Made by a program: the position numbers and the translations under genes | Part shown: piece by piece, positions 212 through 51,674 of the stretch | How the letters are laid out: every line of letters starts with the position of its first letter | How positions within the stretch are numbered: the stretch's first letter is position 1 | The notes under the pieces: model-generated | What the model was told of the DNA's origin: nothing | The model's input: only the letters and a program-made list of their open reading frames with translations | Databases searched by the model: none | From: a virus | Length of the DNA stretch: 64,000 bases | IMG/VR virus record: IMGVR_UViG_3300010354_000079 | Span: 1-64,000 of that record | Strand: one strand, 5' to 3'

Positions 212-422
212 TCATCTACTCCAATAAGGTTTGCGCGGTTGTAATTTGGGGCAATAAAGAACGCGAACGTATTTGGTCTGGTCTGGAAGAACAAAGCGAA
301 CCAACTCGCATTCTCTGTAGGTTCCTGCAACTTTTGGGGATTGTGTGTTTTCTTTTACTGGACTCCAAAAGATTCCAGATACTATTACTATAGCCAGGAG
401 TCCGCTAATAAGTGTTAGGGGT

Positions 423-629
423 TCATTGTTCTTTAAATTTCCCTAAGGCGTCGATCACATTTTGGATACAGTCTTTGGGAATGTAAATAGACGTTGTTTT
501 GCCAGTCATTGCTTCTAACCCCTCAGTGCAACAGACTTCCACAGTTCCATATTCATCAGTGCCGAACGTAAAGGCCCAATCATCATCTTCGTGACGGATT
601 TCTATTTGTGTGGAGATTTTGTAAGTCAT
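423..629 (-). CDS. hypothetical small protein (68 aa)
   Basis: ORF track; same strand as neighbours. Confidence 0.4.
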   Translation of the reverse strand: MTYKISTQIEIRHEDDDWAFTFGTDEYGTVEVCCTEGLEAMTGKTTSIYIPKDCIQNVIDALGKFKEQ

Positions 630-950
630 TTTCTCTAAGGAATTTGATTCGAGTTCTTCATCAACGGTAGGGAGTTCTCCATGGAAGAAAATTGCATCTT
701 CAGCATAACCCCCCTAAACAAACTGTCCAGGAGAAACTTCTTCGGTTATTCCGTAGGTGGTGGCGGAAGGGTGCTAGGAATTACTAAAAAGCCGGGTTCA
801 TCGGTCTCGATATAGCCAATCCGGAATGAATCGCGCCACGGAGGGCGTCGCGGGCCAGGAGCCAGCGGCCGAAGGCGATGGCAAGCGGCTTGATGAGTGC
901 CTCGATAACCACCAGGGCGGCGAAGGCGTCGGTGGCCACGTGGAGGTCAT

Positions 951-1157
951 TTATCGATCTAACTTCTTGACAAGTTTCTTTAGGGCTTTGAATTGCCCCC
1001 AAGTCAGCCCAAAGCCTTGCTCTGCACAGCTAACATCAAACCCCTCGCCATTGTTCCACAAAACCACTTCTATGAAGTCGTCGTCTTTGGCAAGACAATC
1101 GAATTCTTTGAGTGCGGAAAATGCAGCGTCAAGCTTGTAGCGGGTTATCTCAGGCAT
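951..1157 (-). CDS. hypothetical protein (68 aa, start trimmed to MPEITRY)
   Basis: internal ATG at 1155-1157 overlaps stop of upstream gene (ATGcCTGA coupling); ORF track entry 951..1205 is over-extended. Confidence 0.45.
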   Translation of the reverse strand: MPEITRYKLDAAFSALKEFDCLAKDDDFIEVVLWNNGEGFDVSCAEQGFGLTWGQFKALKKLVKKLDR

Positions 1158-1395
1158 CGGAATGGCCCTCCAGTTCGGCGGCGATGGCAAGGATTTCTGA
1201 GGCAAGGCAGTAAGGAACGCTTTGCGCCATTGTTACACCAAAGGTTGTCATAACTTTATTCTTTTGTGTATGTTCAACAGCGGCCCGCAGGGCAGCGGCG
1301 ATTGCGTCTCCGCAATCTTCAAACACACCAACACGCTCCATTACCTCGTTGTAGGCAGACCAAACTGCTTCAGATTGGGGAGAGAGGCGATTCAT
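1150..1395 (-). CDS. hypothetical protein (81 aa)
   Basis: ORF track; ATGA overlap with next gene. Confidence 0.45.
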   Translation of the reverse strand: MNRLSPQSEAVWSAYNEVMERVGVFEDCGDAIAAALRAAVEHTQKNKVMTTFGVTMAQSVPYCLASEILAIAAELEGHSDA

Positions 1396-1583
1396 TCGTT
1401 TTCTCCATAGGTAAGGAAGTTGAAAAGTTTCTCAATACGGTTAACCTCGTGATCAAACTCCTCAGCGACTTCAAAAGGCTCTAGGTTTTGTTCAAAAGAA
1501 AAGTCGGTGAGTTCCTGACACGTTACCTCCCTAAGGCGATTAACGATGAAGGCTCTTAAGGCTTTTCTGGTTTTACGATCCAC
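1392..1583 (-). CDS. hypothetical protein (63 aa)
   Basis: ORF track; 4-nt overlap with downstream gene. Confidence 0.4.
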   Translation of the reverse strand: MDRKTRKALRAFIVNRLREVTCQELTDFSFEQNLEPFEVAEEFDHEVNRIEKLFNFLTYGENE

Positions 1584-1615
1584 GGATGTTCTCTAGTTCA
1601 TTGGCAAGGGAAAGA

Positions 1616-1849
1616 CTATCGGGGCAGGAGGGCTAGGGTGGCGACGGGAAGCACCAAGCCCGCGAACCCCAACCCTACCCACCACCATGCGCTTTCGGGC
1701 AGGCCGGGGCGAGCCTGGAGCAGGCCATCGGCGAAGCAGTGATTGATGGCGACCACGGTCAGGGCGAAGTAGAGCGCGACAAAGGCCATGCGGGCAAGCA
1801 TGACCAGGGCGACCATGCGAGCCAGAGCCTCCAAGGGACTAGGAACCAT
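1616..1849 (-). CDS. small hydrophobic membrane protein (78 aa); paralog of 55923..56153
   Basis: internal ATG 1847-1849 one nt after stop of 1851..2309; product MVPSPLEALARMVALVMLARMAFVALYFALTVVAINHCFADGLLQARPGLPESAWWW... aligns with MESLALIVSFIVLGRMAFVSLCVALAIVAIHHHFVDGVLQTRGLPTDPVWW...; ORF track 1616..2074 is over-extended. Confidence 0.5.
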   Translation of the reverse strand: MVPSPLEALARMVALVMLARMAFVALYFALTVVAINHCFADGLLQARPGLPESAWWWVGLGFAGLVLPVATLALLPR

Positions 1850-1850
1850 C

Positions 1851-2309
1851 TCAGTCAGGTTGCCGGGGGAAGGGTTGCGGGGTGGGGCGGCCGAAGCGGG
1901 TAATGGCTCGTTGCAGCAAGTCAAGAAGTTCGTCGTCCTCCGGACTCCTCCACATGGTTGGTGCAATGACAGTGCCCCAGGCTCTGTCTTGACGGAGCCA
2001 ATCCAAGACGTCTTCCTTCGTCGCCTTCGGCTCGATGGTGGGGCGGCCCCAGCGGGCGAGGGCTTCCTGAACAAGTTGAAGAAGTTGAAGACTTCCGCTC
2101 AGGTCACTGAGGCCCAGCTTATCGGCCAGTTGCATGATCTGGCGCCGCGTGGGCTCAGCCCCCAACGCCTCCGGCTGGGCCAGGGCGGCTTTCATTCGTT
2201 CGACAATAGGTCCCGCGTTCTCAGCAAAGTCTTCCGGGTTTGTAGTGCGACTCCAGCAAAAAGTCAGCTCAGCGCACAGAGCGCGGTAGTCGGTGGGGGT
2301 TCTTTCCAT
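1851..2309 (-). CDS. hypothetical protein (152 aa)
   Basis: ATG 6 nt after TATAGT of cassette E1 (gcgcTATAGTtacattATG). Confidence 0.55.
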   Translation of the reverse strand: MERTPTDYRALCAELTFCWSRTTNPEDFAENAGPIVERMKAALAQPEALGAEPTRRQIMQLADKLGLSDLSGSLQLLQLVQEALARWGRPTIEPKATKEDVLDWLRQDRAWGTVIAPTMWRSPEDDELLDLLQRAITRFGRPTPQPFPRQPD

Positions 2310-2390
2310 AATGTAACTATAGCGCTTTCAGCCCCCAGGGTAAAGGGGGGGGGGGTAAACCGCCCTTTAAGGGACGGTTAACCGCCTTGG
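2310..2390 (-). promoter_or_regulatory. cassette E1 (type B: two GGTWAACCGCC repeats + TTTACC -35 + TATAGT -10); contains 11-G tract
   Basis: minus strand: GGCGGTTAACC-N9-GGGCGGTTTACC(C)n-TTTACC-N17-TATAGT-N6-ATG. Confidence 0.55.
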
Positions 2391-3148
2391 GGCAGGTTAA
2401 AGTCCAGAGAGCAGAAGAGGATTTGCCGCCACCGTGAAATGAGCATCTCCGCGTAATCTCTTCGGGAAGGTGGATTGGATTGTGGATCTCGATTTTCATA
2501 GAGGCCGAGGGACCACCCATCATTGATCTCCACTAGCGAATACCCCCGTAAGTCTGACCTCCAACCGATGTCCACAGAGTAAGCACTCGGCCCAACCATT
2601 TCGTGCAAAAGTTTAGAAACTTCTCGAACCAAGAAATGGTCCGGTTCTGGATTATTAAAGTCCGTATCGTCATAGCGAGACCACCCAAGAACTTGAGGAC
2701 CGTTAACAAAGTCGTGTACGTAAAAGCGAAACTCGGACTCAAACCGCACAGGCTCACTGATCCAAACCAAAGTGTTTTCGGCAACAGAATCCGTTGAAGC
2801 CAAATCCTTTTTGATCGCTCCCGTAAATCGTTTGGTGCGCACAGGTTTCACAAACTCTTCATCCCCCGCTTCGGAAAGCATTCCACGCCGAATCTCGCGG
2901 GCCATGTAAGGCTCAAGGAAATCGTAGTGGAGTCCCTCTTCCGGAAGATTAATACCAATATGTTTGGCGTACTCCCGTGTGAACTCTACCGAGCCTACGG
3001 GAACATGCGAGAGCTTAAAGCATTTCGCATCGATTTCCGCAATTTCATCGAATGTTCTCGACACACAGGGATAGGGGGAGCAAACGCAAGCGAACTTTTC
3101 CGTATGCATAATGTCTCCTCTCTGAAGCAGAAAATGGAGTTCTTTCAC
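2378..3148 (-). CDS. ATP-grasp fold enzyme (putative)
   Basis: motifs FVKPVRTKRFTG (Lys in VKP), VWISEP, YSVDIGW...LVEINDGWSLG resemble ATP-grasp K / E-x-N signatures. Confidence 0.45.
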   Translation of the reverse strand: MKELHFLLQRGDIMHTEKFACVCSPYPCVSRTFDEIAEIDAKCFKLSHVPVGSVEFTREYAKHIGINLPEEGLHYDFLEPYMAREIRRGMLSEAGDEEFVKPVRTKRFTGAIKKDLASTDSVAENTLVWISEPVRFESEFRFYVHDFVNGPQVLGWSRYDDTDFNNPEPDHFLVREVSKLLHEMVGPSAYSVDIGWRSDLRGYSLVEINDGWSLGLYENRDPQSNPPSRRDYAEMLISRWRQILFCSLDFNLPQGG

Positions 3149-3149
3149 G

Positions 3150-3746
3150 TCACTCTGAGAGATTATGTTGAAGCATGTTACAGAAAATTACCCCTTGTTC
3201 AAGAGCATCTTGTTCAGCAATGTGGGAGTGCTTGACTTTTGCCGGAAACCAGTGTCTTGGGTAGTTTCTCTTTACCGACTCTCGATAACCCTTCTTTAGA
3301 AGGGCCATTGCATAGGTCTTTCCATCGAGAGCTGAAAAGCTGAATGGAGATTTACCCGTGAATCGAATGAGATACCAGTAAACAAAAAGGAAGTCAAATC
3401 CTGCAGGAAACCCTACGAAAACCGGATTTGCTTTCTTAGTCATTCCCTGGGGAGTGTACCGTGTCAAGACTTTTTCAGCCCACTCTGAAAACTGCTCCAT
3501 AGCTGCAGCTGGGTCAACTGGGTTTCTTCGGCACTGTTCGTAAGCGTCCCGATTCTCTTTTTGAGACCACCATTCCGAGGTTTTAGGATCGGGAGAGGAT
3601 TCGGGAAGAGGTTCTAAATTGACTGAAAAAGTTTCGAGAAGTGCCCCGTTTGATAGAAAGGCGGCACTTCCGAGAGAAAGCATACTGTTGGGACCGGGAA
3701 TGGGACCGTCGGTTTCAACATCCGTGCTAAAGTAGATTTCAGTCAT
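3150..3746 (-). CDS. DEDD-family 3'-5' exonuclease
   Basis: N-terminal [25 protein letters not shown] resembles the DnaQ/oligoribonuclease Exo I motif. Confidence 0.5.
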
Positions 3747-14974: not shown

Positions 14975-14992
14975 ACCTTCTTAATTAGTTTA

Positions 14993-15082
14993 TAGGCGCC
15001 TAGGGAATCGAACCCTAACTAGCCGGTAATCTGCCGGAGCGGTCCTTATAGGGGACCCTGTGCTACCTTACACCAGACGCCC
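14993..15082 (-). tRNA. atypical type-II tRNA-like gene (anticodon loop CCUAUAA)
   Basis: 7-bp acceptor stem GGGCGUC/GGCGCCU (2 G-U), D-arm GUGU-AAGGUA-GCAC, anticodon stem GGUCC/GGACC, long variable hairpin CCGG-CAGAUUA-CCGG, T-arm UAGGG-UUCGAUU-CCCUA; two nt between D and anticodon stems and C at position 33 are non-canonical. Confidence 0.45.
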
Positions 15083-15108
15083 AAATCAAAGGGCCAAAAG
15101 GCCCTCAA

Positions 15109-20110: not shown

Positions 20111-20159
20111 TCTGCAGTCTAGGGCACTGACCTAAGCTTAGGGTTAAGCTGATATGAAC

Positions 20160-20272
20160 GGAACCGGCAGGACTCGAACCTGCAACCTCTCCTTTAACCT
20201 AGGGATTTGTACTGCTGATGTATCTTTGACAAGATAGCTTTATAGCGCTCTATCCAGTTGAGCTACGGTTCC
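20160..20272 (-). ncRNA. elongated tRNA-like gene f (~113 nt)
   Basis: acceptor GGAACCG/CGGUUCC, D-arm GCUC-AACUGGAUA-GAGC, T-arm GCAGG-UUCGAGU-CCUGC, with ~45-nt insert containing hairpin UAUCUU-GUCA-AAGAUA and CAGCAG. Confidence 0.5.
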
Positions 20273-20303
20273 AATTGTGATCTGATCTTTCGCTAAGCGA
20301 AAA

Positions 20304-20430
20304 GTCGAAGGGGCAAGATTCGAACTTGCGTATGGCGGTCCCTTTAGCGTATAGTTAATTGCTGAATCATCACTTAACTCGATGATCTTTTTTGCATTAC
20401 CGCTGCCTAACCACTTGGCTACCCTTCGTC
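20304..20430 (-). ncRNA. elongated tRNA-like gene e (~127 nt); anticodon-stem GCGGU/ACCGC brackets a 59-nt segment beginning AAUGCAA
   Basis: acceptor CGAAGGG/CCCUUCG, D-arm GCC-AAGUGGUUA-GGC, T-arm GCAAG-UUCGAAU-CUUGC; insert contains hairpin GAUCAUC...GAUGAUU and CAGCAA. Confidence 0.5.
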
Positions 20431-20435
20431 GGTTT

Positions 20436-20527
20436 TCAAGATGAGTTTTATGCTGGACTTGAACCAGCTAGCACCGGGTGTTTAACACCCGTGCATTATC
20501 CGTTTGTTGGCGGCTGCCTCATCTTTT
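20436..20527 (-). ncRNA. stem-closed structured RNA module d
   Basis: terminal stem AAGAUGAG/CUCAUCUU enclosing CAGCC, hairpin GCACGGGUG-UUAAA-CACCCGGUGC and T-arm-like GCUGG-UUCAAGU-CCAGC. Confidence 0.4.
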
Positions 20528-20546
20528 TCTTTGTTTTGCAAAGAAC

Positions 20547-20663
20547 GCCAAAATCAGGAATCGAACCTGAGCTACCTCCTGAACATGGATTATTGGAGAT
20601 TGCTGTCCGGACCTTATACAAGGTCACCGATTTTTAAGCGTGCTACCACTACACTATTTTGGC
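20547..20663 (-). ncRNA. elongated tRNA-like gene c (~117 nt)
   Basis: perfect acceptor GCCAAAA/UUUUGGC, U8A9, D-arm GUGU-AGUGGUA-GCAC, T-arm UCAGG-UUCGAUU-CCUGA; insert has hairpin GACCUU-GUAU-AAGGUC then GGUCCGGACAGCAA. Confidence 0.5.
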
Positions 20664-20681
20664 TTTAACTTGAGTTAAACA

Positions 20682-20766
20682 AGATGAGTTTGTTATTTTT
20701 GCAAGCGCAAAAGGTTGGAATCGAACCAACAGTATCCAGTTTAGGATGTTGCTGCCTCATCTTTGA
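20682..20766 (-). ncRNA. stem-closed structured RNA module b
   Basis: terminal stem CAAAGAUGAG/CUCAUCUUG enclosing CAGCAA, AUCC-UAAACU-GGAU hairpin and T-arm-like GUUGG-UUCGAUU-CCAAC. Confidence 0.4.
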
Positions 20767-20789
20767 TGAAATTTCCGTCTAACGGAAAT

Positions 20790-20904
20790 TGGGGAAGAAG
20801 GAATCGAACCTCCATCACGTCCGCATGAATGGAATTTGTGTAATTGCTGTCTGTATCTTACCAAGATAACTGAATTACGTGTGCTACCATTGCACCATTC
20901 CCCG
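20790..20904 (-). ncRNA. elongated tRNA-like gene a (~115 nt; C1-A72 mismatch)
   Basis: acceptor CGGGGAA/UUCCCC(A), U8G9, D-arm GUGC-AAUGGUA-GCAC, T-arm GGAGG-UUCGAUU-CCUUC; insert has hairpin UAUCUU-GGUA-AGAUA then CAGACAGCAA. Confidence 0.45.
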
Positions 20905-20932
20905 TTGTTTCCAGATTTGGCTCTGGAGATGA

Positions 20933-21028
20933 AACTAGATGGGAGGCAGACAGAACTGCCTTCTCTCGCACGCGGGAGTTTGGACCACCAAAAAGGAATC
21001 AAACCTAAACTTGCTGTCCCATCTTATC
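20933..21028 (-). ncRNA. stem-closed structured RNA module g
   Basis: terminal stem AGAUGGGA/UCCCAUCU enclosing CAGCAA and T-arm-like GGCAG-UUCUGUC-UGCC. Confidence 0.35.
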
Positions 21029-21039
21029 ATGGTTTAGCT

Positions 21040-21088
21040 AGATGATTTTGTTTTCTACACCAGAAAATAAGAATTGCTGAATCATCTA
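21040..21088 (-). ncRNA. small stem-closed RNA module h
   Basis: stem UAGAUGAUU/AAUCAUCUA enclosing CAGCAAUUC and hairpin UUUUC-UGGUGUA-GAAAA. Confidence 0.3.
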
Positions 21089-21131
21089 AGGTAATGATAG
21101 TGGGGCCTCTAAAGAGTAAACCCCACTACAA

Positions 21132-22595
21132 TCAGTTTGAGAAGACGGAGCCGATGGCGTCGTAACGCTCGGTGTAAACTGTATCCTTCATAGTATCGAT
21201 CGGTGTAACAACCTTGCCGGTGAGCAGAGACTTCAGGGTAGAAGGGCTGCAACCGGAGACTAGGCAGGTTCCCGTGTCGTGCATCTTCATCGGAACGTTC
21301 TCGTAGGAATTCACATTCCAGAACACAAGCTCAGGCATCGAGTATCCCGCTTGGGCGTACTTGATACGGATAGCTTCGAAGTTCGTAACGGAAGCTCCAG
21401 AGCAGCACCGGTCAAACTGCATGTCAGAGACAATAATCAGCTTGCGAGGCATGTCACTCTCGGGAACACTGTTCTTGACCGCTGTGTTCAGCACAAGGTT
21501 GAATACCGCTTGCAAGTCCGTATTCATCTGCCAAGCGGCCTGCGACAGATTCCGAATGCGAGAAGCAATCGTAGCTCCGGTCACGGTCTGCAACTCAGGG
21601 CAAGACGAGAAGGTCAGAAACTTATCCTTCCAGATTCCTGTGTTTCTCTCAGAGATGTACATCGCCAGAGAGATGGAAACTGCCATCGGCGTTCCCCTCA
21701 TGGAACCTGAAACGTCCGCAACAACCAGTCCATTAAACTCTTGACCATCCATGTAGTTCGGCAGAGCCTCCCACATCAGGTTGAGAGTTTGATCGTTGGT
21801 CTCACGTCCAGTTAAATACTTGTCTACGATTTCATAGGGGTACAACGTTCCTGCGTTAATCTTGGCCTCGCCCTTCTCAACCGAGTTGAGGTAGGCTTGG
21901 TAGCGATCTCCGTCACGTTTGGCGAAAGCCTTACGGTACATGAAGCCAGCCCGTGAAGGAAGCTTGCTGTAATCAATTCTTTCCCACTCACGAGCGCACA
22001 TCGCTTGTTCAACGATGCGAATCCTCGTTCGCAGGGCAGCCAGAGCTTTACGGTACTCCCTCGCATTCCAACCCATGGTTGCGGCAATCTTTCGGCCAAG
22101 CCTCCTGGAGTTCTTGCTGGAAGCGTTCACTGAGGGTAGCCACTTGGCTACCAGAGAAACAGGGTTTTCAACTTCGGTGTTCAAGTCAGCCGTAAGCTGA
22201 GCCTTGATCATGTTCAGAGCCGTGTCCCAAACAAGGGTGTTCTCCAGGGAGAGAAGGTCGTCCCAGCGACCGTATTCGGGAATGAGGGAAACCAGCTTGG
22301 CTCCGATGGTAGCATCGCTGCGGACCAGTTCTTGGAACAATTCTCGGAAGATCTTACGCTCTCCTTGACCACCACGAATGTCACGAGCCCAAAAGAGAAT
22401 GCGCGTTGCCGTTTCGGGATCTTCGGCAAACGCTAAGCTGAACAGCTTCATGGCTTGGGCAACGTCATTGCGGCAAGCGGCAATTTTTCCAAACAAGTCC
22501 AGGCACCGAGAACCGGTGGACTTGTAAGCTTTTGCCCCATTGACAGTTGTGGTAGTATTCAATTCGTTTTCGAGTGCGTTCAAAAAAGTTGTCAT
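21132..22595 (-). CDS. Ro60-like RNA-binding protein (TROVE/DUF2828-like module + vWA with MIDAS)
   Basis: C-terminal GLVVADVSGSMRG (DxSxS MIDAS, cf. my recollection of Ro60 DVSASM); N-module PEYGRWDDLLSLEN resembles Ro60 GWSHKDLLRLSH; start trimmed to MTTFLNALENEL. Confidence 0.55.
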   Translation of the reverse strand: MTTFLNALENELNTTTTVNGAKAYKSTGSRCLDLFGKIAACRNDVAQAMKLFSLAFAEDPETATRILFWARDIRGGQGERKIFRELFQELVRSDATIGAKLVSLIPEYGRWDDLLSLENTLVWDTALNMIKAQLTADLNTEVENPVSLVAKWLPSVNASSKNSRRLGRKIAATMGWNAREYRKALAALRTRIRIVEQAMCAREWERIDYSKLPSRAGFMYRKAFAKRDGDRYQAYLNSVEKGEAKINAGTLYPYEIVDKYLTGRETNDQTLNLMWEALPNYMDGQEFNGLVVADVSGSMRGTPMAVSISLAMYISERNTGIWKDKFLTFSSCPELQTVTGATIASRIRNLSQAAWQMNTDLQAVFNLVLNTAVKNSVPESDMPRKLIIVSDMQFDRCCSGASVTNFEAIRIKYAQAGYSMPELVFWNVNSYENVPMKMHDTGTCLVSGCSPSTLKSLLTGKVVTPIDTMKDTVYTERYDAIGSVFSN

Positions 22596-23984: not shown

Positions 23985-24839
23985 TCACTTATCCGTCAAA
24001 CCTCCGGGGAGAAAGTCCATCTTGGCACCATTGATGATAACCATCTTTTGAATGGAACCATTCGCAAAGGCAGCTTTGAGAATCTCATTTCGCTGATACT
24101 CAAGCGATTGACTCGTTACAGTAGAAGCAAGAGCTTTATTCTCTTCTGCTTTCAATTGTGCGGTTTCGGTTTTCACTTGTTGCTCTTTGAGAGCGGATTG
24201 TGCGGCAACCACACGATTGACCGAAGCAACAAGGTCGTCTGGGAGGTCGGCCTTTCCGACGATAATGGAGTCTACAGTAATTTTACCTTCGAGTCCATTT
24301 TTCTTGAGGGCTTCACCAAGATTGCTCTTGATCGTGTCCTGAATTTGCTCAAGGCTGCTATTCACAGAAAGAGCGGGAAACTCGTCTACAGACTGATTCA
24401 CTGCGGACGTAATCAGTCGGGAGATATAGCTAGCCATCAACTGAACCTGACCGTTTTCACCGATTCCGTGATTGGTCATGTCGTAGCTGGTGTAGAACTC
24501 GTAGATAGAGTTCGGGTTGATGCTGTATGTGACGGTAACATCCATCTCTTTCATGATGGTGTTATCCTTCGTTTTCGGTCGCAGATCGTTAGCGGTCACG
24601 GTGATCTTACGAGTGTTGAACACCTTGATCGACCCAAAACCGTCGTACTTGATACCGGGAGTCAGAACTTCGTTCTTAACTTGCCCGTCGAAACCGACGT
24701 AGAGACCGTTCTCACCAGTGCTAATGGTTGTAAACTGGCCTGCAGTGAGAGTGATACCGAGGACGATTGCCCCAACGCCAACGGCGACTTTTGTGAGTGA
24801 CATGTTTTTGTTTGTTTTGACTGAAGGTTTAGCTTTCAT
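23985..24839 (-). CDS. SPFH/band-7 (prohibitin/HflC-like) membrane protein
   Basis: N-terminal TM (VAVGVGAIVLGITL) followed by SPFH-like domain and coiled-coil tail. Confidence 0.55.
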   Translation of the reverse strand: MKAKPSVKTNKNMSLTKVAVGVGAIVLGITLTAGQFTTISTGENGLYVGFDGQVKNEVLTPGIKYDGFGSIKVFNTRKITVTANDLRPKTKDNTIMKEMDVTVTYSINPNSIYEFYTSYDMTNHGIGENGQVQLMASYISRLITSAVNQSVDEFPALSVNSSLEQIQDTIKSNLGEALKKNGLEGKITVDSIIVGKADLPDDLVASVNRVVAAQSALKEQQVKTETAQLKAEENKALASTVTSQSLEYQRNEILKAAFANGSIQKMVIINGAKMDFLPGGLTDK

Positions 24840-25339: not shown

Positions 25340-25539
25340 TAGGCTGTCAGAAGAATGAACATTTCTTTTTGATCGTAAGACTGGGAAAGATGAAGACCCT
25401 CTTTTCGGAGAATTTCGAGGGCTTGAAGGTCACCACGAGCCATTAGTTTCTCGCACTGGTTGGCGATGTCCCAGAGCCGAATTCCAACGGCTTCTTCAAG
25501 GGAGAAGCCTGTCACTCGCTGATACTCATCTTCATTCAT
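25339..25539 (-). CDS. hypothetical protein (66 aa)
   Basis: ORF track. Confidence 0.3.
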   Translation of the reverse strand: MNEDEYQRVTGFSLEEAVGIRLWDIANQCEKLMARGDLQALEILRKEGLHLSQSYDQKEMFILLTA

Positions 25540-26266
25540 GTCTAATCTTCACAAGTGACTTTTCTTCAACATCCCAGAGGCACAGGTGTGCTTCTTCCGG
25601 GTTAGAGTCTTCAAGGCATGAACCGCCCATACCACCGTCCAGGACGAGGCTCTTCTCGCTGACGTGGACGTGATGGTAGTGACCGGCAACGCGAACCCAG
25701 TCTCGGTCGGATTCTTCTTCCCACCAAAATACACGAGTCTCGTCTTGCGGCCAAACCGATCCCGGTCGGCGAGGGCCAAAGAGCATATAGTCGGCAGCTT
25801 TCCGAGTAACTTGCTCTACGTAGTAAACACCTTCGTAAGGGGGGACGAGAAGCCAACGAGGAAACATTGCGTGAGCGCAACGGTATTCGGTTTCCCTGGA
25901 ATCCTGAAAAACAACGCCATAGGGGAACGAGTTGAGCCACTCGCCGACTTCTTCTAAGGGAATTCCAGCCTCCTTAAAGTCGGAAAGAGTCTTGTTAATG
26001 GAGGTATCCAGGTGGACATTGTTTCCGCGAATGTACCTCTCGAGCTTGTTTTGGTGATTGCTACGTAGAATTACTGCTCCCCTTTCTGTAGCTGCGCGGG
26101 CTTCGCGGTAAACTTCTGCGCTGTAGCTTTCCTCGACTCGGGAGTCGAAGAGGTCGCCAAGGAGGAGTGGAACTTTGCCATTTTCCTCACAGTAGGTCAG
26201 AGCCTGCAGGAGGGGCTCGATTTGAGAGTGTATGTCGCCGATGATGGCGAAGTTCGGTCCGTTCAT
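25532..26266 (-). CDS. calcineurin-like metallophosphoesterase (paralog of 33488..34213)
   Basis: GDIHS, GDLFDS, SNHQ motifs; downstream of cassette E10. Confidence 0.6.
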   Translation of the reverse strand: MNGPNFAIIGDIHSQIEPLLQALTYCEENGKVPLLLGDLFDSRVEESYSAEVYREARAATERGAVILRSNHQNKLERYIRGNNVHLDTSINKTLSDFKEAGIPLEEVGEWLNSFPYGVVFQDSRETEYRCAHAMFPRWLLVPPYEGVYYVEQVTRKAADYMLFGPRRPGSVWPQDETRVFWWEEESDRDWVRVAGHYHHVHVSEKSLVLDGGMGGSCLEDSNPEEAHLCLWDVEEKSLVKIRHE

Positions 26267-27173: not shown

Positions 27174-27539
27174 CTAAGGTTTGTCACCAAAAAGGTCTTT
27201 AAACCTTGAGTTAATAACTTTCCTGAGAGCCTCAGGGTCTACTCGAATTTTTCGCAGGTGATCCCATGCGTGATCATCGTCAAGGAGGGCCTTAACAACC
27301 TCTCTCTCTTTTTCAACCATCAGCTTCCACCTAGAGTCGGCAGTCTTGGAGAGAGACTCTGCGATATCTTTGTTGTGTTTATCTGTTTCAGGGTCTGCCC
27401 CAACTGAAGGAAATCTTACTTCCCCGTCTGCTCTCTCCCACAAGTCCCATGTTTTAAGGTAAGTTGCCACCTTGTCTAGGTTGATTTCACTATCTGGAGC
27501 TAAATTGTCGTTTGTCATTTTCCAGTTTTCAGCAACCAT
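27174..27539 (-). CDS. hypothetical protein (121 aa)
   Basis: ORF track. Confidence 0.4.
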   Translation of the reverse strand: MVAENWKMTNDNLAPDSEINLDKVATYLKTWDLWERADGEVRFPSVGADPETDKHNKDIAESLSKTADSRWKLMVEKEREVVKALLDDDHAWDHLRKIRVDPEALRKVINSRFKDLFGDKP

Positions 27540-28600
27540 TGATTACTAATTGCCTTGAAGGTGAAGTCAGAGTCGCAAGACTTGAAGACTACTCCTTCGC
27601 GCTTCACCTCAGGGTTAAGGGAAGGACCATCTGCGAAAGATAGCAGGCTTTCCACATTGGCAAAGGACTGCCTTAGGCCATAGCAATGCTCAAGGATGGG
27701 AACGTGAGTTACGTCCGCCCCAAGAGGAACCAGTTCATTCTCAAGCAGGTCGAAACGGGGACTCGGCTTCAGGTGGGATTGAGCGTCGATGTCGAAAACA
27801 TCAAACAGAAAGAACCTTTGACCCTTGACCCTTTCCTGGTTTCCCTGGATTCCTTCGCCAATCAACTCACCCTGAAGGGCAATGTTGCGACCCGTTTTTT
27901 CGTAGAAGGTAATCAGAGCGTCAAGAATGCCTTGATCCCGCGCAGCTTTCCAAAAGCTGTTGGTATCGGATTCCTTCAGGTCAAGATTGCGGCTGCAAAC
28001 GCCTACAACCCCATCCTTCACATAGATCGTGCAAGAGGAACCATCCAGCTTGATGGTAATCTCATAGCCTTCATCCACGTGATCCTGGAAGATTTCCTTT
28101 GCCAGATTTTGGCAACGTTCCTGATCCGTCTTCGGAATCCAGCTTGGGAAGTTTCCGCGAACTTGACCTGCCAGACATGCGGGGATCGGGGCCTCCCACT
28201 TTTGGACTCCAAGAAATTCAGTCAGGTCGTCGCCTTCCTGAAGACCCCTCTCAAAAGCGGTAACATGGTAGCTGAAGTCCAGGTTAAGCTTGAGGGAGAT
28301 AGGCAACAGCAAGCCCTGGCTAACTTGGCCGCGAAGCTTGACGGTCTTGAGGCGTTCGCCCTTCACCCCGTTGTACTCGCGCGGCTCCTTGCCCTTACTC
28401 AAAAACGGAGCGAGCTCGTGGGGGACCCAGCTATCAATTTCAAGGTAGAGTGCCAGGTTGCCCACGGTAAATTCACCCTTCTTCACAACCACGGGCCAGC
28501 CACCTCCAACAATAGCGCATTCAATGGCATCAGCGTCCGGAATGGGGCGAATTTCGGTGATTTGCTTGATGGAAGCAAGTTTTCGAGTTGTTTCAGTCAT
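27515..28600 (-). CDS. ATP-dependent RNA ligase (PF09414-like, large form)
   Basis: ITIKLDGSS (KxDG motif I) with downstream nucleotidyltransferase-like motifs; 361 aa. Confidence 0.55.
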   Translation of the reverse strand: MTETTRKLASIKQITEIRPIPDADAIECAIVGGGWPVVVKKGEFTVGNLALYLEIDSWVPHELAPFLSKGKEPREYNGVKGERLKTVKLRGQVSQGLLLPISLKLNLDFSYHVTAFERGLQEGDDLTEFLGVQKWEAPIPACLAGQVRGNFPSWIPKTDQERCQNLAKEIFQDHVDEGYEITIKLDGSSCTIYVKDGVVGVCSRNLDLKESDTNSFWKAARDQGILDALITFYEKTGRNIALQGELIGEGIQGNQERVKGQRFFLFDVFDIDAQSHLKPSPRFDLLENELVPLGADVTHVPILEHCYGLRQSFANVESLLSFADGPSLNPEVKREGVVFKSCDSDFTFKAISNQWLLKTGK

Positions 28601-50779: not shown

Positions 50780-51175
50780 TTAAGCGGAGGATAAGGGGGA
50801 GAAGATTTCCTGTTTCGCAAGCTCGGGGTCAACATTCGGAACAAACCCTTCAGCGCACATTCGAAGGTAAGCGACTCCCCAAGGTACCCCGTCTTTCTTA
50901 GAGAGAAGAGAAGCGTAAAGAATGTATCCAGGGACGAGCAAAGATGCGAACCTTTGACACCACTCGTCACCAGCATATTGCTTCTGCCTTTCCATTGCTA
51001 AGCCCTCTGTAAACTCCCTGTAATCGGAATCGCTCTCGATTACAACATTGTTCAAATCAGGGGAGACTACTCCGTACTTGCTAATCAAGGCTTTTAAATC
51101 TTGTATGCTTGTGCAAGAATCAAGTTCCTTCTTGTAATCAGAGTCCAAATCTGAATCGTACGTGACCCGCAACAT
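50780..51175 (-). CDS. hypothetical protein (131 aa)
   Basis: ORF track; start right after GC hairpin + TTTCAA. Confidence 0.35.
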   Translation of the reverse strand: MLRVTYDSDLDSDYKKELDSCTSIQDLKALISKYGVVSPDLNNVVIESDSDYREFTEGLAMERQKQYAGDEWCQRFASLLVPGYILYASLLSKKDGVPWGVAYLRMCAEGFVPNVDPELAKQEIFSPLSSA

Positions 51176-51195
51176 TTTGTTTTTGAGTGGTTGAA

Positions 51196-51216
51196 AGGGG
51201 GGCCGAAGCCCCCCGA
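51196..51216 (-). terminator. GC hairpin + U tract at the 3' end of the tmRNA coding piece
   Basis: CGGGGGGCUUCGGCCCCCC-UUUC. Confidence 0.45.
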
Positions 51217-51445
51217 GTGAGTCAGAGTGCGTTGCTCAAACGGCAACCGCAGTCCTCTCAAATTTGACGATTTTGTTAGCGTCTATTTTGTGCTTATGCA
51301 AGCGGCTTTCACTTAGGTGACAATTTCGCCCCGTCGAAACCTTTGCAGCCCCGTGAGAGCCCCGAAGGGCGGAGGCAAAAGTGGAACTGAACGGACTCGA
51401 ACCGTTGTCCGAAGCGGCGTCCTCCCAAGCTACACCTAGTTTAGA
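51205..51445 (-). ncRNA. ssrA: two-piece (circularly permuted) tmRNA gene
   Basis: acceptor piece ...CUUCGGACAACGGUUCGAGUCCGUU-CAGUUCC-A (T-arm + 3' acceptor strand) lies upstream of coding piece GGGGCUGCAAAGGUUUCGACGGGG... (5' acceptor strand pairs with CAGUUCC via 2 G-U); resume context AAAAUAGAC-GCU AAC AAA AUC GUC AAA UUU GAG AGG ACU GCG GUU GCC GUU UGA gives tag ANKIVKFERTAVAV; ends with GC hairpin GGGGGGCUUCGGCCCCCC-UUUC. Confidence 0.6.
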
Positions 51446-51467
51446 GTCTTACGGTAGGACTGTAAAA

Positions 51468-51674
51468 TCAGATTGTTTCGAAACTAAGACCACTTGATTC
51501 TGTGGACCAGACACTGACTCTAAGCTTCACGCCTGAAGGAAATTCAAGAAGAACATTTTCTGAAAAGCCGCAAACATCTTTGTAGGAGTAAGAGATAATG
51601 TCTCCGGACTCTACCAGCTTGTCCAGGTCTTCATCAGAGAGGTTTTCCACGTTGTTTGTGAGAGAAGGTGTCAT
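51468..51674 (-). CDS. hypothetical protein (68 aa)
   Basis: ORF track. Confidence 0.3.
   Translation of the reverse strand: MTPSLTNNVENLSDEDLDKLVESGDIISYSYKDVCGFSENVLLEFPSGVKLRVSVWSTESSGLSFETI

Follow-up and report, generated by a model that had tools for sequence, protein, structure and literature searches.

The 64,000-nucleotide (nt) stretch of viral DNA analysed here (the window; IMG/VR virus record IMGVR_UViG_3300010354_000079, positions 1 to 64,000) carries an array of eight small RNA units directly downstream of a gene for a protein with a predicted Ro60 fold. We favour the reading that this locus encodes a Ro60-like ribonucleoprotein system, which probably consists of a divergent Ro60-family protein and partner RNAs that are Y-RNA-like in their working and stand outside YrlA. 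The anatomy of the array, the covariation of its helices, their linkage to the gene and the fold of the protein were all obtained in this analysis, and from them we infer the binding, the particle itself and its physiological role.

The array and the adjacent gene

The array is about 930 nt long, and its first unit begins 43 nt past the stop codon of the gene at 21132-22595. Four stand-alone modules are interspersed with four tRNA-shaped units of 114-125 nt each. The eight units had been placed here on the minus strand by the original prediction, and they were confirmed from the sequence, by Rfam tRNA, by ARAGORN with introns permitted and by their closing helices. The features are listed below; the extent of the array and the hairpins outside the eight units were read from the sequence, and folds are of minimum free energy (MFE). 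R1 is a covariance model (CM) described further below.

20159-21089, minus strand: small-RNA array, eight units in one orientation
21132-22595, minus strand: gene of the Ro60-fold protein, 487 amino acids (Pfam DUF2828 and DUF7788/vWA; MIDAS (metal-ion-dependent adhesion site) DVSGSM; phrog_850 'RNA-binding protein')
21098-21129, minus strand: hairpin after the stop codon, UAGUGGGG/CCCCACUA, loop of 15 nt, without a U-tract and not called a terminator
21038-21089 (52 nt), minus strand: module a, minimal and stand-alone, UUAGAUGAUU-CAGCAAUU-hairpin-ACAA-AAUCAUCUAG (closing helix of 10 base pairs (bp); CM R1 55 bits, E=1e-9; MFE fold)
20937-21024, minus strand: module b, stand-alone, AGAUGGGA-CAGCAAG...UCCCAUCU, with internal hairpins and a degenerate T-arm-like GGUUUGAUUCC (8-bp closing helix; MFE fold)
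20789-20904, minus strand: unit c, tRNA-shaped, with a UAUCUU-GGU-AAGAUA hairpin and CAGACAGCAA replacing the anticodon arm (Rfam tRNA 41.9 bits, 56-nt insert)
20772-20788, minus strand: small AU-rich hairpin 3' of unit c, UUUCCGU-uag-ACGGAAA
20681-20763, minus strand: module d, AAGAUGAG-G-CAGCAAC, a D-like hairpin, T-arm GUUGGUUCGAUUCCAAC, a third hairpin and CUCAUCUU (8-bp closing helix; MFE fold z=-2.9; R1 17 bits)
20546-20663, minus strand: unit e, tRNA-shaped, with a GACCUU-GUAU-AAGGUC hairpin and CGGACAGCAA as insert (Rfam tRNA 44.8 bits, 58-nt insert; MFE z=-3.5)
20527-20545, minus strand: small hairpin 3' of unit e, UUCUUUG-caaaa-CAAAGAA
20438-20525, minus strand: module f, AAGAUGAG-G-CAGCCG, a small hairpin, a long anticodon-arm-like hairpin, T-arm GCUGGUUCAAGUCCAGC and CUCAUCUU (8-bp closing helix; MFE z=-5.0)
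20304-20428, minus strand: unit g, tRNA-shaped, with a GCGGU/ACCGC stem around AAUGCAA..., hairpin GAUCAUCG-loop-UGAUGAUU and CAGCAAUU (ARAGORN, only with introns allowed)
20288-20302, minus strand: small hairpin 3' of unit g, UUUCGC-uua-GCGAAA
20159-20272, minus strand: unit h, tRNA-shaped, with a UAUCUU-GUCA-AAGAUA hairpin and CAUCAGCAG as insert (Rfam tRNA 46.2 bits, 53-nt insert)

The motif GATNNNNCAGCAR occurs five times in the window, always on the minus strand and within 20212-21086 (0.81 copies expected). Open reading frames called mechanically across the array matched no PHROG family. Units c, e and g are each trailed within a few nt by a short hairpin of 6-7 bp, and none follows unit h; these short AU-rich hairpins may be processing or weak termination signals. 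The unit in which GCGGU/ACCGC brackets AAUGCAA is present as predicted, although it had been labelled e; it is the third tRNA-like unit, g here, and its T-loop reads AGUUCGAAUCU instead of the GGUUCGAnUCC that had been ascribed to it.

The protein encoded at 21132-22595 matches DUF7788 (5.6e-50, vWA-like) and DUF2828 (1e-36) in Pfam, with a weak match to VWA_2, and phrog_850 'RNA-binding protein' among the PHROGs. Its homologs are annotated as 'Ro-like RNA binding protein' in mycobacteriophages and as 'RNA-binding protein' in Felix O1-type phages. No match to Pfam TROVE was found at E<=1, and a profile of the family run against the PDB sequences returned a vWA match and no Ro60, so that a comparison of folds was needed. 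An AlphaFold2 model built from 84 diverse homologs reached a predicted local distance difference test score of 90.7 and a predicted template-modelling score of 0.91, and the top 10 Foldseek matches of the model in the PDB were all Ro60/TROVE structures, aligned over the full length. The model has the arrangement typical of Ro60, an N-terminal alpha-helical HEAT-repeat domain followed by a C-terminal vWA domain, and the MIDAS residues D294, S296 and S298 (DxSxS) are invariant in the 84 homologs. The gene had been described as Ro60-like with TROVE and vWA parts; the HEAT-repeat ring and the vWA/MIDAS fold are supported by Foldseek, while the TROVE assignment found no counterpart in Pfam. The window protein is thus predicted to have a Ro60 fold which sequence methods do not place in TROVE.

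DUF2828/DUF7788 is a large, divergent branch of the Ro60 fold. The family comprises 7042 clusters (50% identity) at E<=0.001 and 2878 at E<=1e-30, with members in Felix O1-type coliphages, mycobacteriophages, cyanophages, vibriophages and Clostridia genome loci (probably prophages). Pfam DUF2828 has been reported from plants as well. Residues 71-80 in the N-terminal helical domain (window 22358-22385, minus strand) read RDxRGGxGER and are invariant in the 84 homologs, including enterobacterial, vibrio and cyanophage members. Judged by this conservation, the motif is a candidate RNA-contact site.

The constant element and its scaffolds

The loci used for comparison, 85 from phages and 80 from bacterial genomes, were selected via the protein, with the exception of the reciprocal scan described below; a single-protein query gave 3 related loci and an alignment query 80. 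The constant element consists of a helix of 7-10 bp that has a 3' G and, at its base, a conserved AGA/UCU, and of a single-stranded (A/U)CAGCAA after the 5' strand. In the window, the closing helix directly precedes CAGCAA in modules a, b and d. CAGCAA had been predicted for all four smaller modules, and f has CAGCCG in its place. The T-arm-like hairpin likewise ascribed to all four is clear in d and f only, degenerate in b and missing from a. Modules d and f form in their MFE folds a closing helix and three hairpins including a canonical T-arm, which gives a cloverleaf-like shape with the module at the acceptor position. None of 200 shuffles was as stable as module f, and the orthologs of module d in three phage loci (L016, L026, L032) show compensatory changes.

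The same design was seen by eye 3' of the homologous gene in three unrelated phages. The helix sequence varies by lineage, and its base is AGA/UCU or GAC/GUC, with (A/U)CAGCAA on the 5' side.

Synechococcus phage B3: modules UAGAUGAUUCAGCCA...AUCAUCUAG and UAGGUGGUUCAGCAA...AACCACCUAG
E. coli phage HY02: module AGACCnnUUACAGCAA...nnGGUCU
Mycobacteriophage Archie: module GGACGCUAACAGCAA...GCGUCC; no tRNA genes found in the locus

The internal hairpin loop UGCGGAUAA is common to short modules of an E. coli phage (L002 2754-2813, minus strand) and a Mycobacterium phage (L003 3415-3472, minus strand), and the corresponding loops in window modules d and f are CUGGAUA and ACGGAUAA. The D-loop-like GG motif in such loops might contact a T-loop in trans or cis.

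A first helix detector (>=7 bp within 200 nt) gave many false positives in coding DNA and was replaced by sequence-only selection and a covariance model. For the former, candidates were picked by the pattern AG[AG]N6-8CAGCA[AG] in the window and the 85 phage loci, which avoids circularity. An exact Watson-Crick complement of the 7-mer was found 15-170 nt downstream for 70 of the 237 candidates, versus 1 in the reversed-7-mer control, and these 70 contain 28 distinct helix sequences. When 54 short modules were aligned, compensatory changes were observed at 6 of the 7 pairs of the consensus helix. In an alignment of 120 distinct CM hits, which was fitted to the model so that its pairing counts favour the structure, 98.6% of the cells were paired and 185 double-change cells were counted versus 42.6 after shuffling (0 of 500 shuffles reach 185); slid registers of this alignment gave 28-38% pairing. 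The module helix thus covaries beside homologous genes, and the pairing is kept in homologous genomes as had been anticipated.

Several copies per locus have nearly identical arms, which is what DNA-level repeats such as the inverted repeats of mobile elements or protein-binding palindromes would show. It is nevertheless scarcely credible that the elements are such repeats and not RNAs. Their orientation to the gene is constant in 273 of 273 CM hits, modules sit inside covarying tRNA folds, and the helix sequence shifts between lineages by compensatory substitutions. On the expressed strand, G.U is tolerated and A.C is avoided: at the helix flanks, U.G was counted in 60 of 120 sequences versus 0 for A.C at the outer pair, and 9 versus 2 at the first inner pair, which argues for pairing at the RNA level over the DNA level.

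By analogy with the Ro-binding stem of Y RNAs, the helix and CAGCAA form a putative docking site of the Ro-like protein. The remainder of each RNA would then be a variable body, mostly tRNA-derived, of three types: one hairpin alone; a cloverleaf or T-arm whose acceptor position holds the module; or, in four units, a complete tRNA body that has free acceptor ends and a loop-closed module for the anticodon arm.

The tRNA-shaped units share with ordinary tRNA (RF00005) the acceptor, D and T arms and the conserved tertiary nucleotides, namely U8, G18/G19-type D-loops and GUUCGA T-loops. In place of an anticodon stem-loop (5-bp stem, 7-nt loop, conserved anticodon) they have 53-59 nt. Units h, e and c score above the Rfam tRNA cut-off of 29 bits and carry 53-58 nt where an anticodon arm of 11-13 nt is expected, and unit g was detected solely by ARAGORN with introns permitted. 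Default ARAGORN called 0 of the 4 units, and ordinary tRNAs of ~75 nt, which the original prediction had named as the contrary outcome, were not returned. In the loci and the window together, ARAGORN with introns gave 63 unique units of this kind. They were counted 79 times in 36 of the 85 phage loci and 9 times in 7 genome loci. Orthologs were found for unit c in L007, L013, L034 and L068, for unit g in L007, L008, L013, L043 and L068, and for unit h in L008 and L068. In an alignment of 59 units, compensatory changes were observed at 14 of the 15 acceptor, D and T pairs, acceptor, D and T arms thus covarying as in ordinary tRNA. The units are selected tRNA folds rather than decaying pseudogenes; their tRNA bodies cannot decode, and they retain the acceptor, D and T features recognised by tRNA-handling enzymes.

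The insert of these units carries the hairpin and CAGCA(A/G) motif that the inserts had been predicted to share. A stem of at least 6 bp lies directly 5' of C[AU]GCA in 97% of the units and in 5% of the shuffled controls, and these stems covary (UAUCUU/AAGAUA, GACCUU/AAGGUC, ACAUCGA/UUGAUGU, AGUCAU/GUGACU and others). The hairpin was measured per sequence, because RNAalifold on the 59 units missed it owing to alignment shifts. Its pattern, ...AUCU(A/U)-G-loop-(U/A)AGAUnn-CAGCAA, equals the two ends of the stand-alone module, AUCUAG at 3' and UAGAU... at 5', connected by a loop. The insert is therefore the stand-alone module in circularly permuted form, placed at the anticodon-arm site.

The alternative of intron-bearing tRNAs had also been raised. 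The four long units would then be real tRNA genes with intervening sequences of 45-60 nt, which the phosphoesterase and RNA ligase nearby, for example, would excise and rejoin, and the helix with CAGCAA would be a splicing signal. The tRNA bodies are intact and covary, genes for a DraRnl-type RNA ligase and a metallophosphoesterase are found on the same strand 4-7 kb upstream, and ARAGORN can be made to fit intron models to 4 of the 4 units. However, the forced intron positions scatter from 30 to 39 and leave mismatched anticodon stems, and orthologs are given different anticodons; those of unit g come out as Leu-aag, Leu-cag, His-atg and Gly-gcc, and rare anticodons (Asn-att, Tyr-ata, Phe-aaa) are common. 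No constant splice point in the 59-unit alignment restores the conserved 7-nt loop with U33. The element is also present in stand-alone RNAs without tRNA exons and in the Archie locus, the inserts are much smaller than group I introns, and Rfam at E<=10 returned neither an intron nor a ribozyme family. These results make splicing a very improbable explanation, and they separate the units from both ordinary and intron-bearing tRNA.

The module also sits on other scaffolds. In the fold of HY02, one module surrounds four elements in exactly the order of YrlA (V-T-AS-D), namely a V-like hairpin, a T-arm, an acceptor-like hairpin that is closed, and a D-arm, with the module at the anticodon position and open ends. 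For Archie, the same order was read from the letters, but neither the acceptor-like hairpin nor the D-arm came out in the fold, which did not surpass shuffles (z=-0.45). The invariant module and the interchangeable tRNA-derived body are what is expected of a protein-docking element on an adaptor RNA. Two observations concern annotation. The RefSeq record of HY02 (L002, NC_028872) has no tRNA features at 400-3150 (minus strand), and ARAGORN finds 18 tRNAs in the locus, interleaved with four CAGCAA modules; a small plus-strand coding sequence for a 'hypothetical protein' (2856-3071) overlaps the tRNA genes. Synechococcus phage B3 carries an annotated tRNA-Pseudo-GCA.

The anticodon-less bodies could also act, independently of the Ro-like protein, as decoys or sponges for tRNA enzymes or for host nucleases that target tRNA, and the linkage would then be co-inheritance in a tRNA and RNA-repair island. 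This fits the derivation of the tRNA-shaped bodies from several tRNA types and the phage tRNA clusters and RNA-repair genes in the neighbourhood. We regard it as quite unlikely: the helix with CAGCAA, rather than the tRNA body, stays constant across the scaffolds, minimal modules lack tRNA features altogether, and linkage and orientation are kept across cyanobacterial, enterobacterial and actinobacterial phages and Clostridia genome loci. Decoys of anticodon nucleases would, moreover, be expected to retain the anticodon loop.

Gene linkage and relation to known Ro60 systems

R1 was built from short modules and calibrated quickly, so its E-values are rough; it under-detects long and permuted forms, and its hit counts are lower bounds. 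On both strands of the window it gave 2 hits, both within the array, with module a the best. In the 85 phage loci (598 kb), 220 hits were obtained at E<=1, all on the strand of the DUF2828 gene. The best 150 of them include 58 upstream hits, at a median distance of 82 nt from the gene, and 86 downstream hits, at a median of 266 nt; none falls inside the gene. The bacterial-genome loci (L086-L165), which are mostly metagenome-assembled genomes of Clostridia and also include the complete chromosomes NZ_CP167068.1 and AP018533.1, gave 53 hits at E<=0.1, 53 of 53 on the gene strand and upstream. The Clostridia loci carrying the gene are probably prophages.

The reciprocal test started from the RNA. 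A scan of IMG/VR for the 16-mer TAGATGRTTCAGCAAT listed 80 loci, which hold 88 matches. A closing helix accompanies 30 of these matches; for 22 of the 30, the stretch that was fetched contains a DUF2828 gene, on the strand of the match in every case, and at least 3 of the other 8 sit on contigs already known to carry the gene. In contrast, the gene was found for 1 of the 58 matches without a helix, a number of matches close to the chance expectation for a 16-mer. These linkage statistics agree with the prediction that the RNAs act as gene-linked partners with tRNA-like domains, as in Ro60/Y-RNA loci.

In many relatives, 1-2 modules stand directly upstream of the DUF2828 gene (for example L014 2867-2993, L027 2875-2993, L025 2865-2993 and L001 5203-5322, minus strand). 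The first often holds an anticodon-arm-like hairpin, CUAGAC-NUUUAA-UCUAAC, or the loop CUCUUAA, and the second ends ~8 nt ahead of the start codon. These upstream copies may be an autoregulatory operator.

The modules might accordingly be thought to act only in cis, as processing or termination punctuation of a phage tRNA cluster or as an operator for the protein's own mRNA, with no role in trans. Modules are interleaved with real tRNAs in HY02, 423 standard tRNAs lie in 45 of the 85 phage loci, where real tRNA clusters flank the gene, many loci have 1-2 modules ending ~10-150 nt from the start codon, and the bacterial-genome hits are all upstream. But 40 of the 85 phage loci have modules and no tRNAs, modules are embedded in tRNA-shaped RNAs and in RNAs of YrlA layout, where punctuation between genes is impossible, and the window has eight downstream copies and none upstream. 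An autoregulatory operator would still need the proposed recognition of RNA by the protein, and in this respect it overlaps partly with a Ro60-like system. A purely cis-acting role is therefore held to be unlikely. No rival accounts together for the invariant module, the variable scaffolds, the strict orientation and the reciprocal gene linkage.

Adjacent Y RNAs that have tRNA-like domains are bound by canonical Ro60 proteins of bacteria (Rsr) and phages, which also recruit PNPase (PMC4201824, PMC12135203). The window locus resembles Rsr/YrlA (RF02553; Chen et al. 2014, PMC4201824) in that a ring-shaped HEAT-repeat and vWA protein is encoded beside small RNAs, so the RNAs are, as in YrlA, neighbours of a Ro60 homolog. 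As in YrlA, their terminal stem, whose 5' strand bears a conserved purine-rich motif, is attached to a tRNA-like domain that includes T- and D-arms, and the V-T-AS-D order recurs in HY02 by fold and in Archie as read from the letters. There are also differences. The protein matches DUF2828/DUF7788 instead of TROVE; the motif is (A/U)CAGCAA beside an AGA/UCU helix, versus GNCGAAN0-1G in YrlA; and the YrlA layout of a permuted tRNA-like domain in a terminal stem was not found in the window, where units either have an unpermuted tRNA-like body whose acceptor ends are free and whose anticodon arm is replaced by the module, or carry the helix at the acceptor position. Eight RNAs are packed into 930 nt. 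Membership of the YrlA type, which had been proposed, is thus not upheld.

The Ro60 of Thermus phage phiLo is described together with Yrl1/Yrl2 and the PNPase of its host (Hu et al. 2025, PMC12135203; PDB 9KOP, 9L5Y). Partner RNAs encoded next to the gene and a proposed recruiting or modulating of a host RNA-decay enzyme are likenesses to the window locus. The phiLo protein, however, has a TROVE domain, and a CGAA motif in a stem-bulge-stem marks its RNAs; in the passages of the paper that were consulted, neither tRNA-shaped RNAs with a replaced anticodon arm nor a CAGCAA module are reported. The phiLo and window proteins are 13-18% identical in sequence. No description of the window RNAs was found in open-access papers and preprints, and Rfam 15 has no family for the module.

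Several results weigh against a Ro60-like system, besides the sequence searches that did not reach TROVE or Ro60 and the fitting of the 120-hit alignment to its model. Rfam YrlA gave at best 20.8 bits on the array (E=0.19; cut-off 69), a spurious match pieced together from the unit g T-arm and the unit h D-arm, and in the loci of B3, HY02 and Archie it found nothing at E<=1. Otherwise, Rfam returned only tRNA on the array (gathering threshold, E<=10) and in these three loci (E<=1), with no ribozyme, intron or other family. The sole array match to the Ro-binding motif of Y RNAs, GNCGAAN0-1G, is the acceptor stem of unit g, GACGAAGG, which is not the expected context. R1 scores window modules b, d and f poorly even with filters off; they were assigned by direct inspection, d also by a small ortholog alignment. 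The module lies just upstream of the gene in many phage loci and in the majority of bacterial-genome loci, and a cis-regulatory operator would fit there too. Simple consensus scans for promoters and terminators gave nothing useful.

Neighbouring features and proposed function

A Band-7/SPFH protein (23985-24839), a metallophosphoesterase (25532-26266) and a DraRnl-type ATP RNA ligase (27515-28600) are encoded upstream on the same, minus strand. The ligase matches TIGR02306 (4e-62), and the metallophosphoesterase has weak Pnkp-phosphatase similarity; the stretch looks like an RNA-repair neighbourhood. Upstream in the Archie locus are a metallophosphoesterase and a 'lipoprotein' gene, which is the PHROGs name for the Band-7 family of the window. 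Within 3-kb flanks, the Band-7, phosphoesterase and ligase neighbours are kept only in close relatives, and for this reason they are not claimed as parts of the system.

Two further RNA genes lie elsewhere in the window. A permuted (two-piece, cyanobacterial-type) tmRNA gene at 51145-51471 (minus strand), in an otherwise phage-like window, has the tag peptide ANKIVKFERTAVAV and Rfam scores of 82 bits (tmRNA_permuted) and 76 bits (cyano_tmRNA). A 92-nt tRNA-Ile(UAU) at 14992-15083 (minus strand), called by ARAGORN and not by Rfam tRNA at the gathering threshold, has a long variable arm, CCGG-cagauua-CCGG, which is unusual in a class I tRNA.

For the array and its protein, the proposed mechanism is drawn by analogy with Rsr, Y RNA and PNPase (PMC4201824) and with phiLo Ro60, Yrl and PNPase (PMC12135203): the tRNA-like bodies would probably link the ring to enzymes that recognise the tRNA shape. 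During infection, the RNAs would likely tether the Ro-like ring, or gate it, towards those enzymes of host or phage that process, repair or degrade RNA and act on tRNA-like substrates. The architecture is apparently new in its unpermuted tRNA bodies, replaced anticodon arm and arrays of up to eight units, and the system apparently represents an undescribed second Ro60-like clade with its own RNA recognition element.

A bolder version is speculative and, in our judgement, rather doubtful. In it, a very large second Ro60-like clade would use a code of AGA-helix and CAGCAA that can be grafted anywhere on a tRNA scaffold. The anticodon-less tRNA bodies, possibly matured by RNase P and CCA-adding enzyme, would be handles bringing the ring to host enzymes that handle or cleave tRNA, as a programmable anti-defence or tRNA quality-control particle, and the upstream copies would be its autoregulatory operator.

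If the Ro60-like reading is true, a large family of domains of unknown function would obtain a testable function, and the Ro60/Y-RNA principle would be extended to a new recognition module. It would account for the 'pseudo-tRNA' annotation in phage B3 and probably for similar ones elsewhere. It would also provide genetically tractable systems, in E. coli and M. smegmatis, in which to study the purpose of the tRNA-like domains of Y RNAs, those of canonical YrlA included.

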